This document shows, one piece after another, positions 1 through 39,235 of a stretch of 39,235 nt of DNA. The notes under the pieces were generated by a model. That model searched no databases and was not told the origin of the DNA. It saw only the letters and a program-made list of their open reading frames with translations. The translations under genes were made by a program, and so were the position numbers. This DNA comes from Escherichia phage 64795_ec1. Positions within the stretch are counted from its first letter, which is position 1. Each line of letters begins with the position of its first letter. Location: the sequence record NC_031114.1. One strand, given 5' to 3'.

Positions 1-66
1 ACAAAAGCCTATTCCTAAAGACGCCTTGTTGTCACCTATAAAGAGATAATCTTCATCCATCGTCTT

Positions 67-89
67 TAATACAACTCACTATAGGGAGA
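67..89 (+). promoter_or_regulatory. T7-RNAP promoter phiOL (TAATACAACTCACTATAGGGAGA)
   Basis: 23-bp match to T7 class promoter consensus, +1 G at 84. Confidence 0.8.
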
Positions 90-140
90 CTACTTAAAGA
101 TGCCTTAAAAGATTAATTTAAAGATTTATTAAAAAGAGTA

Positions 141-5952: not shown

Positions 5953-6369
5953 ATGAACGACATAGAACGATTCAACGCAAAGACTGAACCATGCGGAGAA
6001 TGTATTCGTTGGACTGGTCGAATCCAGCCTAACGGGTACGGTCAGTTACGATTAAACGGTAAAACACAGTATGCACACAGAGCAGCTTACACACTGTTCA
6101 ATGGAGAAATACCAGAAGGATACGTGGTTATGCACTCCTGCGATAACAGATGGTGTGTAAACCCAAGGCACCTAACTTTAGGAACACAATCTGATAACCT
6201 CATTGACATGACCAGAAAAGGTAGGCACAGTAAGACCGTAATACCAAACGATCACATAGAGGGAATCAGGAATGATACCCGATCTTCCTACGTAATAGCT
6301 AGGGAGTGGGGAGTGAATCCATCAACTATCCAAAAGATTAAATCTGGAAAGAATAGGAGATTTGTATGA
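5953..6369 (+). CDS. free-standing HNH homing-type endonuclease
   Basis: 138 aa; motif HSCDNRWCVNPRHLTLGTQSDNLIDM (H-x-C-D-N-x-x-C-x-N-P-x-H-L…N) and a helix-turn-helix-like C-terminus (VIAREWGVNPSTIQKIKSGK). Confidence 0.85.
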   Translation: MNDIERFNAKTEPCGECIRWTGRIQPNGYGQLRLNGKTQYAHRAAYTLFNGEIPEGYVVMHSCDNRWCVNPRHLTLGTQSDNLIDMTRKGRHSKTVIPNDHIEGIRNDTRSSYVIAREWGVNPSTIQKIKSGKNRRFV

Positions 6370-32700: not shown

Positions 32701-33581
32701 CACAGGAACTAGCTGCTCGCTCTCCATGGACTAAGCTGCTTAATGGAACCACTAACTACCTTCTTGATGCTGCGCGTCAAGGTATGCTTGGGGACGTTAT
32801 TAGTTCTACCCTAACAGGTAAGACTACCCGCTGGGAGAAAGAAGGATTCCTTCGTGGTGCCTCCGTAACTCCTGAGCAGATGGCTGGAATCAAGGCTCTC
32901 ATCAAGGAACATATGGTACGTGGTGAGGACGGGAAGTTTACCGTTAAGGATAAGCACGCGTTCTCTATGGACCCTCGTGCTATGGACTTATGGAGACTGG
33001 CTGACAAGGTAGCTGATGAGGCGATGCTGCGTCCACACAAGGTGTCCTTACAGGATTCCCATGCGTTCGGAGCATTAGGTAAGATGGTCATGCAGTTTAA
33101 GTCTTTCACTATCAAGTCCCTTAACTCTAAGTTCCTGCGAACCTTCTACGATGGGTACAAGAACAACCGAGCGATTGACGCTGCGCTGACTGGTATCATA
33201 TCTATGGGTCTCGCTGGTGGCTACTACGCTATGGCTGCACACGTCAAAGCATATGGAATGCCTAAGGAGAAACGTAAAGAGTACTTGGAGCGAGCACTGG
33301 ACCCAACCATGATTGCCCACGCTTCGTTGTCTCGTAGTTCTCAATTGGGTGCTACTTTGGCTATGGCTGACCTAGTTGGTGGCCTGTTCGGGGTTGAGTC
33401 CTCAAAGATGGCCCGCTCTACGATTCTGCCTAAAGACACCATGAGGGAGCGTGACCCTAATAAGCCTTATACCTCGTGGGAGGTAATGGGTAATATGGGT
33501 TCCAACATTCTTGAACAGATGCCATCGGCTGGATTTGTGGCTAACGTTGGGGCTTCCCTACTTAATCTGCTGGCGTGGTGA
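29775..33581 (+). CDS. 16: internal virion protein D with N-terminal lytic transglycosylase domain (gene 16); reading frame ends early at TGA 33579-33581
   Basis: 1268 aa; …GVSYDLLRKVAWTESRFVPTAKSKTGPLGMMQFTKATAKALGL… (transglycosylase motif). Confidence 0.9.
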   Translation: MDKYDKNVPSDYDGLFQKAADANGVSYDLLRKVAWTESRFVPTAKSKTGPLGMMQFTKATAKALGLRVTDGPDDDRLNPELAINAAAKHLAGLVGKFDGDELKAALAYNQGEGRLGNPQLEAYSKGDFASISEEGRNYMRNLLDVAKSPMAGQLETFGGITPKGKGIPADVGLAGIDHSQKVTQELPESTSFDVKGIEQEAPAKPFAKDFWETHGETLDEYNSRSTFFGFKNAAEAELSNSVAGMAFRAGRLDNGFDVFKDTITPTRWNSHIWTPEELEKIRTEVKNPAYINVVTGGSPENLDDLIKLANENFENDSLAAEAGLGAKLSAGIIGAGVDPLSYVPMVGVTGKGFKLINKALVVGAESAALNVASEGLRTSVAGGDADYAGAALGGFVFGAGMSAISDAVAAGLKRSKPEAEFDNEFIGPMMRMEARETARNANSADLSRMNTENMKFEGEYKGVPYEELPTEKGAVVLHDGSILSASNPINPKTLKEFSEVDPEKAARGIKLAGFTEIGLKTLGSDDADIRRVAIDLVRSPTGMQSGSSGKYGSTASDIFEKLRGTDQRTYNDLYKAMSDAMKDPEFSTGGAKMSREEARYTIERRVSLAIENPELQKALTPNERIVMDIVKRHYDTKRELMENPAVFGNTKAVSIFPESRHKGTYVPHVYDKYAKALKIQQYGAEGLQEGIARSWMCSYDLRPAVKARIDEALKEMHGVEEVTHDMVYKYAMDKAYGISHSDRFTNSSIIEENIEGLVGIENNSFLEARNLFDSDLAITMPDGQQFSVNDLRDFSMFRIMPAYDRRINGDIAIMGSTGKTTKELKDEILALKAKAEGDGKKTGEVHALMDTVKILTGRARRNQDTVWETSLRAINDLGFFAKNAYMGAQNLTEIAGMIATGNVRALGHGIPILRDTLYKSKPVSAKELKELHASLFGKEVDQLIRPQRADIVQRLREATDTGPVVANIVGTLKYSTQELAARSPWTKLLNGTTNYLLDAARQGMLGDVISSTLTGKTTRWEKEGFLRGASVTPEQMAGIKALIKEHMVRGEDGKFTVKDKHAFSMDPRAMDLWRLADKVADEAMLRPHKVSLQDSHAFGALGKMVMQFKSFTIKSLNSKFLRTFYDGYKNNRAIDAALTGIISMGLAGGYYAMAAHVKAYGMPKEKRKEYLERALDPTMIAHASLSRSSQLGATLAMADLVGGLFGVESSKMARSTILPKDTMRERDPNKPYTSWEVMGNMGSNILEQMPSAGFVANVGASLLNLLAW

Positions 33582-33730
33582 ATGCTCCCAACAAAGCCAC
33601 TGAGCAGGACTTCATGACTGGCTTGATGAACTCTACCAAGGAGTTAGTACCTAACGACCCTCTTACTCAACAGCTTGTGTTGAAGATTTATGAGGCGAAT
33701 GGTGTTAACTTGAGGGAACGTCGGAAATAA
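33578..33730 (+). other. 16: displaced 3' segment of gene 16 (last 50 codons in the other frame)
   Basis: VNAPNKATEQDFMTGLMNSTKELVPNDPLTQQLVLKIYEANGVNLRERRK, stop TAA 33728-33730 inside phi17; 1268+50 codons equals the T7 gp16 length as I recall it. Confidence 0.6.
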
Positions 33731-33750
33731 TACGACTCACTATAGGGAGA
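33728..33750 (+). promoter_or_regulatory. T7-RNAP promoter phi17
   Basis: TAATACGACTCACTATAGGGAGA, +1 at 33745. Confidence 0.88.
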
Positions 33751-33802
33751 GGCGAAAGAATCTTCTCCCTGTAGTCTCTTAGATTTACTTTAAGGAGGTC
33801 AA

Positions 33803-34675
33803 ATGGCTAACGTAATTAAAACCGTTTTGACTTACCAGTTAGATGGCTCCACTCGTGATTTTAATATCCCGTTTGAGTATCTAGCCCGTAAGTTCGTAGT
33901 GGTAACTCTTATTGGTGTAGACCGCAAGGTCCTTACGATTAATACAGACTACCGTTTTGCTACTCGCACTACTATCTCACTAACCAAGGCTTGGGGTCCA
34001 GCGGATGGATATACTACAATAGAGCTACGTCGAGTAACCTCCACGACCGACCGCTTGGTTGACTTTACGGATGGCTCAATCCTCCGTGCGTATGACCTTA
34101 ACGTCGCTCAGATTCAAACGATGCACGTAGCGGAAGAGGCCCGTGACTTAACTGCGGATACTATCGGTGTCAATAATGATGGTAACTTGGATGCTCGTGG
34201 TCGTCGAATTGTGAACCTAGCGAACGCTGTAGATGACCGTGACGCTGTTCCGTTTGGTCAACTTAAGGCTATGAACCAGAACTCATGGCAGGCGCGTAAT
34301 GAGGCCTTACAGTTCCGTAATGAGGCTGAGACTTTCAGAAATCAAGCGGAGGGCTTTAAGACCGAGTCTGGCACTAACGCTGCTAATACGAAGCAGTGGC
34401 GTGATGAGACCAAAGGTTTCCGAGACGAAGCTGAGCAGTTTAAGAATACTGCTGGTCAATATTCTACATCCGCTGGGAACTCTGCGACCGCAGCACACCA
34501 ATCTGAGGTAAACGCTGAGAACTCCGCAACAGCCTCCGCTAACTCTGCCCAGTCAGCAGAACAGCAAGCAGACCGCGCTAAGGTGGAAGCAGACAAGTTG
34601 GGTAACTGGAATGCACTTGCAGGGGCAATTGATAGTGTTGACGGGAACAATGTCATGTTTAAAGGCGACATTTAG
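33803..34675 (+). CDS. 17: tail fibre protein (gene 17), proximal part: T7-type tail-anchor and coiled-coil shaft
   Basis: 290 aa MANVIKTVLTYQLDGSTRDFNIPFEYLARKFVVVTLIGVDRKVLTINTDYRF…; stops at TAG 34673-34675. Confidence 0.9.
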   Translation: MANVIKTVLTYQLDGSTRDFNIPFEYLARKFVVVTLIGVDRKVLTINTDYRFATRTTISLTKAWGPADGYTTIELRRVTSTTDRLVDFTDGSILRAYDLNVAQIQTMHVAEEARDLTADTIGVNNDGNLDARGRRIVNLANAVDDRDAVPFGQLKAMNQNSWQARNEALQFRNEAETFRNQAEGFKTESGTNAANTKQWRDETKGFRDEAEQFKNTAGQYSTSAGNSATAAHQSEVNAENSATASANSAQSAEQQADRAKVEADKLGNWNALAGAIDSVDGNNVMFKGDI

Positions 34676-35675
34676 AACACCTGCAAATATCGTAGGTGGT
34701 GGCTTAATCTCCAACGGTTCTGGTCATTTTGAGAAAGGCGTGGCTGTTAAGGGTGAATTAGATGTTGTAGGGGATGTTTCGGCGCATAAGGATGTGTGGG
34801 TAGATGGTGTAGTTGTAGCCAATGGTGGGATACAGCAACATTCAAATCCTAATACCCTTAATGAGGTGTGGAGGGTGTTTATTAAGGGGGTCCCACTCCA
34901 TATTGGAAACCGACAAGGTCTTCATCTTGGTTGGAACGAGACCAGTAATGGCGAGTCGTGTTTTGTTACTAACAAAGGTGCAGGTGGTGGTGGTTTTGTT
35001 TTCCGCACGGTAAACTTTGAGAACACTGCTGAGATTGGTCGCGTTACATTCACTGGTAACGGTGGAGTACGCGCCTTCGATTTACAAGCAATTAATGGTG
35101 CTCGTATTGAGGCTGGGAATAATATAGTTGGTGCGAGCATTTTCTCAGGAATGGGCGCCTGCCAGTTCAATACCGAAGGTAACTTGCTGGGAGGTCTATG
35201 GAACAGAGTTGGAGGTGACCTATACAACTACCTGTGGAACAAGAGTCACTTTGCTAAGCCACCTGCTGGGGTTCAATTGTTTACAGGCCGTGGTGGGGAC
35301 TACCTTGAGGGCCTTGTTGATACTACAGCTGTTGGGTTCCGCTGGTTCAATTCTGACAGAAGGCTTAAAGAAAACATAAAGGTTGTACGTTCCGCTGATG
35401 ATATGCTTAAGATTATCCGCTCATACATCCCGGTTTCCTATAAGTATAAGGACTCTGAGTATGTTGATAAGCGTGGCAGAACGGTAAGCGTTACCGGTAA
35501 GAACTCTCGTGCTGGTTTCATTACTCAGGATTTGATTCGAATCTGGCCAGAGGCGGTGGACGTGCTATCCGATGGTATGCAATCCCCAGACCCTAACCAA
35601 ATCATCGGTGGACTCATGCTTCTTGTCAAGAATCTTGATGAACGCGTACAGGAGTTGGAGAAAAATAACGTTTAA
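34674..35675 (+). CDS. 17: tail fibre (gene 17), distal receptor-binding part with C-terminal S74-like intramolecular chaperone, in the other frame
   Basis: RTPANIVGGGLISNGSGHFEKGVAVKGELDVVGD… then …NSDRRLKENIKVVRSADDMLKIIRSYIPVSYKYKD…IIGGLMLLVKNLDERVQELEKNNV; no independent SD, so a continuation of the proximal ORF is assumed. Confidence 0.75.
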   Translation, partial: RTPANIVGGGLISNGSGHFEKGVAVKGELDVVGDVSAHKDVWVDGVVVANGGIQQHSNPNTLNEVWRVFIKGVPLHIGNRQGLHLGWNETSNGESCFVTNKGAGGGGFVFRTVNFENTAEIGRVTFTGNGGVRAFDLQAINGARIEAGNNIVGASIFSGMGACQFNTEGNLLGGLWNRVGGDLYNYLWNKSHFAKPPAGVQLFTGRGGDYLEGLVDTTAVGFRWFNSDRRLKENIKVVRSADDMLKIIRSYIPVSYKYKDSEYVDKRGRTVSVTGKNSRAGFITQDLIRIWPEAVDVLSDGMQSPDPNQIIGGLMLLVKNLDERVQELEKNNV

Positions 35676-35723
35676 GGATAACACTGGATTAGGACCAAGG
35701 ATGGTATTTAATAAGGAGGATAC

Positions 35724-38989: not shown

Positions 38990-39156
38990 AGAGTCAAGTC
39001 CTAAAGTATATCCATAAAGAGCCTCTAATGGTCTATCCTAAGGTCTATACCTAAAGATAGGCCATCCTATCAGTGTCACCTAAAGAGAGTCCTAGAGAGG
39101 GCCTAGGGAGTTCCTAGAGGGTCCTTTAAAATATACCATAAAAATCTGAGTGACTA
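38990..39156 (+). repeat. right-end short-repeat region (CCTAAAG-like heptamers) preceding the terminal repeat; concatemer-processing/packaging signals by position
   Basis: recurring CCTAAAG / CCATAAAG / CCTAGAG units spaced along the segment. Confidence 0.45.
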
Positions 39157-39235
39157 TCTCACAGTGTACGGACCCAAAGTTCCCCCCATACGGGGTACCT
39201 AAAGCCCACCTAAAGTCAACCGAAGGTCCTTAGGG
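39157..39235 (+). repeat. beginning of the direct terminal repeat (partial, truncated by the window edge)
   Basis: TCTCACAGTGTACGGACCCAAAGTTCCCCCCATACGGGGTACCTAAAGCCCACCTAAAGTCAACC closely matches the T7 genome-end sequence as recalled. Confidence 0.7.

Follow-up and report, generated by a model that had tools for sequence, protein, structure and literature searches.

Tail fibres of the T7 type and their relatives

In bacteriophage T7, the distal half of the tail fibre protein gp17 (NP_042005.1, 553 residues; PDB 7boz and others) consists of gp37_trimer and gp37_C domains, which form the pyramid and the tip, and the receptor is the rough-lipopolysaccharide (LPS) core. The subject of this article is the corresponding gene 17 of Escherichia phage 64795_ec1 (Teseptimavirus tv64795ec1), located at positions 33803-35675 of sequence record NC_031114.1. 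The 39,235 nucleotides (nt) of this record constitute the window that was analysed; all coordinates refer to it, and gene 17 with its upstream signals lies on its plus strand. Gene 17 of 64795_ec1 shares its promoter, Shine-Dalgarno sequence and gene position with that of T7, whereas its distal half carries a C-terminal S74 chaperone that is absent from T7 gp17.

A combination of an N-terminal Phage_T7_tail domain with a C-terminal Peptidase_S74 domain is also found in gp17 of Yersinia phage phiYeO3-12 (NP_052117.1, 645 residues), to which the fibres of AP5, AP10 and phiYe-F10 are related. Recombinant phiYeO3-12 gp17 of 69 kDa is converted into fragments of about 58 and 11 kDa, a cleavage that has been credited to the S74 domain at residues 539-645 (PMC7582827). 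The cleavage has been seen again, and the protein binds the O:3 O-antigen of Yersinia enterocolitica but not a rough mutant (PMC8739404). The distal half of this protein is collinear with that of 64795_ec1 and 64% identical to it, with about 90% identity in the chaperone. In contrast, its N-terminal 290 residues are of the T3/Teetrevirus type and only 58% identical, the shaft sharing 13-40%. The two phages also differ in host and O-antigen, and gene 17 of phiYeO3-12 is uninterrupted.

Four fibres are built as the same full-length mosaic with the same junction, at a conserved xFKG motif: those of Escherichia phages Bas102 (MeretOppenheim, XPK42577.1) and NC-A, Shigella phage ESh1 and Yersinia phage vB_Yep_9, with 622-625 residues. 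Bas102 was isolated as a phage dependent on the O16 O-antigen, and its fibre was described as having a C-terminal intramolecular chaperone (PMC11990801); its Pfam domains (Phage_T7_tail and Peptidase_S74) are those of 64795_ec1. Relative to the 64795_ec1 fibre after repair of the frame break described below, the four proteins are 89-96% identical over residues 1-290 and 79-85% over residues 291-623. The stretches 291-360 and 420-465 diverge most from these Teseptimavirus relatives (47-80% identity), so that the receptor specificity may differ from theirs. All four are encoded by single intact open reading frames (ORFs), whereas 64795_ec1 has one extra T.

Gene 17 is interrupted by a single base in the deposited sequence

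A preliminary description, made from the letters of the sequence, had treated 33803-35675 as the coding region of one protein in which a T7-type anchor is fused to a distal domain of other origin. As deposited, the region does not encode one protein. Its length of 1873 nt is one over a multiple of three and it contains two reading frames instead of one ORF. The 5' part of the gene (ORF A, 33803..34675) comprises codons 1-290, which end in VMFKGDI, followed by a TAG codon at 34673-34675. The second ORF is open in the +1 frame from 34611 to 35675, and the part of it that is homologous to other fibres begins at 34674 (RTPANIVGGG). Position 34674, from which the distal half had been translated, is indeed the first codon of the distal frame, but it overlaps the TAG, and the change of frame had passed silently. 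In the same way, the peptides that had been quoted are all present in the sequence, with the N-terminal and the distal ones in different frames. In the deposited sequence the anchor and the distal domain are separated by a 1-nt insertion, and the public record annotates two coding sequences (CDSs), both named tail fiber protein: ANM45765.1/YP_009291518.1 with 290 residues and ANM45766.1/YP_009291519.1 with 341.

The raw sequence across the break reads TTT AAA GGC GAC ATT TAG AAC ACC. The break itself lies at 34670..34672, where 64795_ec1 has TTT and its relatives have TT or TC; the extra T creates ATT-TAG. In the alignment, GAC ATT T AGA of 64795_ec1 stands opposite GAC ATT CGA of Bas102 and GAT ATT AAA of NC-A. 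In a megablast search five phage records covered the whole region (ESh1, Bas102, two of NC-A, and Yersinia phage vB_Yep_9), and in all five gene 17 consists of a single ORF with 622-625 codons. Over a 3.8-kb alignment with ESh1, Bas102, NC-A and Yep_9, the extra T is the sole indel in gene 17 that is not a multiple of three. Removal of one T restores an open gene of 1872 nt and 623 codons, in which codon 291 specifies Arg, a position occupied by Arg or Lys in the relatives. Residue numbers beyond 290 refer to this repaired protein. The region had also been described as about 200 nt longer than in T7, and the actual difference is 211 nt (1873 against 1662 nt).

The distal frame has been maintained by selection. 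Ratios of nonsynonymous to synonymous substitution rates (dN/dS), calculated by the Nei-Gojobori method against the four relatives, are 0.08-0.11 for residues 1-290, 0.19-0.33 for residues 291-516, which are read in the +1 frame, and 0.03-0.07 for residues 517-623. No decay is visible in the distal half, which is under purifying selection and has accordingly been translated in its own frame throughout the divergence of these phages. Exact-pattern scans of the junction in IMG/VR and the JGI metagenomes, with and without the extra T, yielded no second public sequence with the +T allele; the only true relative that they recovered was NC-A, which is in frame. A search for contigs encoding either half of the fibre found neither on record.

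A second break in gene 16 and the state of the record

Gene 17 is not the only gene of 64795_ec1 that changes frame. Gene 16, which encodes internal virion protein D, does so at about 33566 (within 33560-33581) through a private 1-nt deletion: 64795_ec1 reads AAT-CTGCTGG where T7, NC-A, Bas102 and Yep_9 read AATGCTG, and ESh1 reads AATACTGCTGG, with an A where the others have G. Consequently gp16 is annotated with 1268 residues (ANM45763.1) rather than 1318. The last 54 residues of gp16 lie in another frame, which runs into the phi17 promoter region, and the remainder of the gene reaches 33730. A -1 frameshift was considered for gene 16 and rejected, as no slippery heptamer was found where the two frames overlap by six codons. 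Two private single-base indels are therefore present in essential virion genes, 1.1 kb apart. That the segment between them is a special recombinant patch was likewise rejected, since the identity profiles shift gradually there.

When 33 T7 proteins were compared with the window by tblastn, every gene except 16 and 17 was found in a single frame. The phage, whose accession is given as KU927499 in a paper on Shigella phages (PMC9686686), shares about 92% identity with T7, Yanou, Bas104 and ESh1 across the first 25 kb of its genome. The part of the T7 genome that can be aligned with the record extends from T7 position 319 to 39849 only, and direct terminal repeats of the T7 type were not found at the ends of the record (window 1-100 and 39135-39235). 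The ends of the deposited sequence are incomplete, a state that fits an unfinished draft.

Origin of the break

Gene 17 of 64795_ec1 is probably one tail fibre gene with a true product of 623 residues, and its one-base break is most likely an error of sequencing or assembly. In its context, the extra T is most likely an artefact because it is private, the four close relatives and NC-A in IMG/VR being in frame, and because the frame downstream of it is undecayed and under strong purifying selection. The same conclusion is favoured by the second private indel, which breaks the essential gene 16 where no slippery site is present, by the missing terminal repeats, which mark the record as unfinished, and by the fact that a phage isolate needs both gp16 and gp17 intact. 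If gene 17 is a single gene, a gp17 peptide spanning FKGDIRTPANIVGGG would be present in virions. Several points weigh on the other side. That the extra T is most likely an error is a judgement drawn from context rather than from reads. The deletion in gene 16 lies outside any homopolymer and is not of the classic 454 or Ion Torrent error type, and all other T7-homologous genes that were tested are intact, so the record is not generally error-ridden. Two breaks within 1.1 kb could belong to a real, lesion-bearing variant. Furthermore, the break in gene 17 is situated three codons past the xFKG motif at which the T7 and non-T7 modules meet, and this coincidence is unexplained. As to the product, its cleavage, trimerisation and receptor are expected by analogy with orthologues whose distal parts share 64-84% identity with it, and the receptor is likely to be determined by the stretches that vary most, 291-360 and 420-465.

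The main competing explanation, in our view an unlikely one, holds that the extra T and probably also the gene 16 deletion are real, and that the DNA sequenced was that of a defective variant, of a minority variant or of a stock in which lesions had arisen. The TAG is indeed part of the deposited sequence and both CDSs have been annotated accordingly; in addition, the genome contains no further frame breaks, and the general error rate is not obviously high enough to account for two. ORF A would then encode a 31.9-kDa stub made up of anchor and shaft, with no receptor-binding tip, and the distal half would be lacking altogether or appear as a free 37-kDa protein initiated at ATG 34650, a codon that lies in the +1 frame and is preceded by a weak GGGA. 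However, a fibre without its distal half would be unable to adsorb, the function of a gp16 without the last 54 residues is doubtful too, and such a genome would not be propagable as a plaque-forming isolate. Moreover, the downstream frame shows no secondary decay (dN/dS 0.03-0.33), and the junction scans of IMG/VR and the JGI metagenomes place the +T allele in no second public sequence.

Two further explanations accept the extra T and assign it a function, and both are far less probable. The first is fortuitous +1 ribosomal frameshifting at AUU-UAG-A, which would give a 290-residue stub together with the 623-residue fibre; it would be very surprising if this were the case. The model is prfB, whose shift site is CUU-UGA-C with a Shine-Dalgarno-like element upstream. 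In 64795_ec1, the mRNA reads UUU AAA GGC GAC AUU UAG A, with a stop codon in the A site right behind an XUU codon and a Shine-Dalgarno-like AAGG(CG) 2-4 nt before the shift codon. While UAG waits for release factor 1, the tRNA-Ile in the P site would slip from AUU to UUU, and a slip at AUU regenerates the conserved protein, with D-I followed by R-T-P. Nevertheless, the shift site is missing from ESh1, Bas102, NC-A, Yep_9, phiYeO3-12 and HZ2R8, all of which use one frame, so that nothing about it is conserved, and the resemblance to a Shine-Dalgarno element comes simply from the conserved F-K-G-D codons. Re-pairing of tRNA-Ile (GAU) with UUU involves a first-position U.U mismatch, which is a poorer pairing than that of tRNA-Leu when it moves from CUU to UUU in prfB. 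No slippery sequence of any kind accompanies the break in gene 16, and a shared cause, namely error, is simpler for both breaks. If it were true, a +1 recoding event would have been reported for the first time in a tail fibre gene of the T7 group, and it would illustrate how a phage tolerates a lethal indel where two modules join. The least probable explanation of all is a genuine two-piece fibre, in which an anchor and shaft of 290 residues binds a separate distal protein of 341 residues non-covalently, in the manner of the adaptors and tailspikes of SP6, K1-5 and KP32-type phages. Its starting point is the presence of two adjacent tail fibre CDSs in the record; branched or adaptor-based fibres with a T7-type N-terminus are known in other Autographivirales, and tailspikes and depolymerases occur among the PDB matches for homologues of the N-terminal domain. 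Yet the split point is continuous in every homologue, and one base alone separates the split gene from its relatives. ORF A stops within the shaft and has no docking domain, ORF B opens with eight out-of-frame residues instead of a known adaptor-binding peptide, and none of the Pfam or PHROG matches suggests an adaptor.

The T7-type anchor and the module junction

With gene 17 taken as a single gene, its mosaic build is readily described. The tail-binding domain occupies residues 1-162 (33803-34288) and matches Pfam Phage_T7_tail (PF03906) over the entire profile (1-157 of 157) with an E-value of 3e-73 and 245 bits, the cut-off being 25.2. Residues 1-165 hardly differ from the N-terminal domains of T7 gp17 that have been solved (8e4g and 8dsp). 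It is followed, still within ORF A, by a helical shaft rich in Ala, Ser and Asn (residues 163-290). Identity to T7 gp17 is 92% over residues 1-290, in agreement with the T7-type anchor and shaft first proposed, and falls to 15% over residues 291-623. The alignment with T7 gp17 reaches residues 1-293 only (E 6e-170); there is no full-length alignment, and the loss of resemblance to T7 in the distal half, also proposed at the outset, is borne out.

In sliding windows, identity to T7 drops from 73% to 17% between residues 256 and 286, which puts the breakpoint at residues 271-290. At the DNA level, a similarity of about 90% to T7 ends at about 34653 and restarts at 35713, so the swapped cassette measures about 1.06 kb (~34655-35712). 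In evolutionary terms, the gene is the product of a cassette swap that placed a phiYeO3-12-type module between T7-like flanks, with the junction at the conserved xFKG. The idea of a swapped, non-T7 module holds in so far as the distal half is unrelated to that of T7; it is, however, not a new module but the long-known distal half of phiYeO3-12-type gp17. A chimeric assembly as the source of the mosaic was rejected, the identical junction being present in four independent isolates.

Another class of T7-type fibres, with 467 residues (P0006 and P0008, on Logan contigs of 21 and 39 kb), has the N-terminus in common up to and including TFKG and continues past this motif with a distal module of a third kind, which is unrelated and lacks S74. 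The modules are switched at one motif (34655-34672, codons 285-290): T7 has YWKGNIHANG, 64795_ec1 MFKGDIRTPAN and the 467-residue fibres TFKGLAVSGGN. To judge from these sequences, the common switch at xFKG points to a recombination junction.

The distal receptor-binding module

The 3' part of gene 17 begins with a Gly-rich, beta-structured region, residues 291-516 (34674..35351, in the +1 frame). The distal half matches PHROG 9502, tail fiber protein, over its residues 2-332 with an E-value of 8e-147. NCBIfam has no family for it, a profile search with the distal half yielded nothing beyond the PDB sequence matches given below, and two word-indexed protein searches gave just 4 and 8 matches. 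By tblastn, the distal module is present in 57 phage records, in 36 of them at full length (at least 80% coverage), with 63% identity for phiYeO3-12; the phages concerned are T3- and T7-like phages of Yersinia, Enterobacter, Shigella, Citrobacter, Serratia, Klebsiella and Escherichia.

Among 1.84 billion cluster representatives, an exhaustive HMMER search found 166 matches, just two of which are full-length at E<=1e-30. The others cover either a central sub-domain (about 70-190 of the distal half) or the chaperone with the part that precedes it (about 200-330), and the distal module is thus itself assembled from shared pieces. One such piece, QGLHLGWNE..GE..N.G.G.GGFVFRTVN..N..E.GRV, is encoded at about 34905-35120 (residues 368-440). 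It has no Pfam model and is 40-58% identical in many otherwise different fibres; its carriers include a protein encoded in the genome of Erwinia tracheiphila that ends in a Gp53-like_C domain (P0025) and fibres of Pseudomonas, Burkholderia, Dickeya and Erwinia phages. Residues ~450-501 (35151-35297) show a recurrent but insignificant resemblance to residues 434-482 of T7 gp17 (G-x-x-x-x-x-x-x-GN-[LI]-x-G-x-x-W ... F-[VA]-AK). This region of T7 gp17 is the connector of pyramid and tip, and the resemblance may reflect chance or a weak motif common to the fibres.

AlphaFold2 models depended on the depth of the alignment. The mean predicted local distance difference test score (pLDDT) was 32.5 with 4 sequences, which is unusable, and 77.1 with 116. 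In the latter model, residues 291-516 form strands with a 6-residue periodicity followed by a beta domain (pLDDT 55-90). A monomer model of what is an intertwined distal domain finds only generic beta-helix matches, and for this reason no fold was assigned to residues 291-516.

The S74 chaperone and its expected role in maturation

The last part of the protein, residues 517-623, together with the stop codon (35352..35675), is a Peptidase_S74 intramolecular chaperone, as had been proposed for the last 110 residues or so. The assignment is based on a significant profile match, a catalytic dyad and the fold. Residues 517-585 match PF13884 over positions 1-57 of 58 (E 3.7e-12, 46.8 bits, gathering score 22; 48.1 bits with the distal half alone). 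Ser517 is encoded at 35352-35354 and Lys522 at 35367-35369, and a long C-terminal helix at about 35592-35669. The motif FN-S517-DRRL-K522 contains the Ser-x4-Lys dyad, and FN-SDRRLK lines up with SDERLK (8jov) and SDRRIK (6f45) of solved fibres. In the alignment of 116 sequences, the Ser is conserved in 92 of 110, the Asp in 92 of 105 and the Lys in 87 of 99. By sequence, the last 127 residues match PDB chaperones weakly (E 0.07-0.7), and the fold of the C-terminal domain agrees with that of solved S74 chaperones.

The dyad is shared with the K1F endosialidase (3gw6), T5 pb1 (4uw8), the GA-1 neck appendage (3gud) and MyRF (7dc3). The solved S74 (ICA) domains are also C-terminal and situated behind a trimeric, beta-structured passenger; they are only 12-24% identical to the 64795_ec1 domain, and their passengers, a sialidase beta-propeller and beta-helix, the T5 'bullet' domain and a eukaryotic transcription factor, are unrelated. 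The dyad has been defined for the endosialidase (endoNF), for T5 pb1 as Ser1264/Lys1269 (PMC4690869) and for MyRF as S578/K583. In T5 pb1, the bond between Thr1263 and Ser1264 is cut and the serine departs with the chaperone, for which a correctly folded trimer is required (PMC4690869).

On the strength of these precedents and of the orthologous fibres, self-cleavage, a certain order of trimer assembly and a class of receptor are to be expected for 64795_ec1 as well. Transcription of gene 17 would start at the phi17 promoter, and a strong Shine-Dalgarno sequence would direct its translation. Three chains would assemble from the C-terminus, the S74 chaperone (517-623) trimerising and serving as a template for the folding of the distal domain (291-516). 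After correct folding, the Ser517/Lys522 dyad would cut between Asn516 and Ser517, so that Ser517 would leave with the chaperone. Cleavage had originally been placed at the Ser before DRRLKEN; by analogy with T5 pb1 and K1F, it is expected N-terminal to this residue. The predicted products of the 67.9-kDa precursor are a mature chain of 55.7 kDa and a chaperone of 12.2 kDa, and a mature gp17 that ends at Asn516, as the product of a single gene, would yield the peptide ...VMFKGDIRTPANIVGGGLISNGSGHFEK. The N-terminal domain (1-162) would dock the trimer on the tail and the helical shaft (163-290) would hold the tip outward.

The tip most likely would bind an O-antigen polysaccharide, not the rough-LPS core as in T7. 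A receptor different from that of T7, which the preliminary description had considered probable, is plausible by analogy, because phiYeO3-12 gp17 binds the O:3 O-antigen and Bas102 needs the O16 O-antigen.

The DNA that encodes the chaperone also stands out. At 35330-35560 it is 96-100% identical to that of Bas102, whereas the adjoining receptor-binding part is 72-83% identical, and dS is much lower in the chaperone part (0.19 against 0.42). This pattern suggests that the chaperone-coding part was exchanged recently or that it is conserved as a 3' homology arm through which cassettes are swapped.

Promoter, gene neighbourhood and mobile genes

Gene 17 is located between genes 16 and 17.5, as in T7. 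It is preceded by the class III T7-type promoter phi17, TAATACGACTCACTATAGGGAGA (33728..33750), which agrees with the 23-nt consensus without a mismatch and has the identical relative position in the T7 annotation. The window contains ten perfect class III promoter sites, phi17 among them, where none would be expected by chance. The Shine-Dalgarno sequence TAAGGAGGT (33790..33798), as read from the sequence, ends 4 nt before the ATG of gene 17. Elsewhere in the genome, genes 1.2 and 1.3 are separated by an ORF for an HNH_3 homing endonuclease (5962-6366, plus strand; Pfam E 8e-16). The encoded protein shares 35-41% identity with T7 gp2.8 and gp7.7, and 64795_ec1 is empty at the T7 positions of 2.8 and 7.7. 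The mobile endonuclease genes of 64795_ec1 are placed otherwise than in T7.

Significance

The design of the 64795_ec1 fibre is already known and the finding as such is ordinary, since the phiYeO3-12-type module has long been known, the mosaic on a T7 backbone has been published for Bas102 and is also present in ESh1 and NC-A, and 64795_ec1 itself is a public RefSeq genome. Its scientific weight is small and its practical value is curatorial. ANM45765.1/YP_009291518.1 and ANM45766.1/YP_009291519.1 are, on the reading that we consider most likely, the halves of one gene 17, and ANM45763.1 is truncated by the second indel. Those who use this RefSeq species exemplar for host-range prediction, for catalogues of receptor-binding proteins or for fibre engineering should repair both frames beforehand. 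For the T7 group, the locus represents a clean exchange of modules, in which three distal modules, of the T7, the phiYeO3-12 and the 467-residue type, are found on one T7 anchor, joined to it at xFKG.

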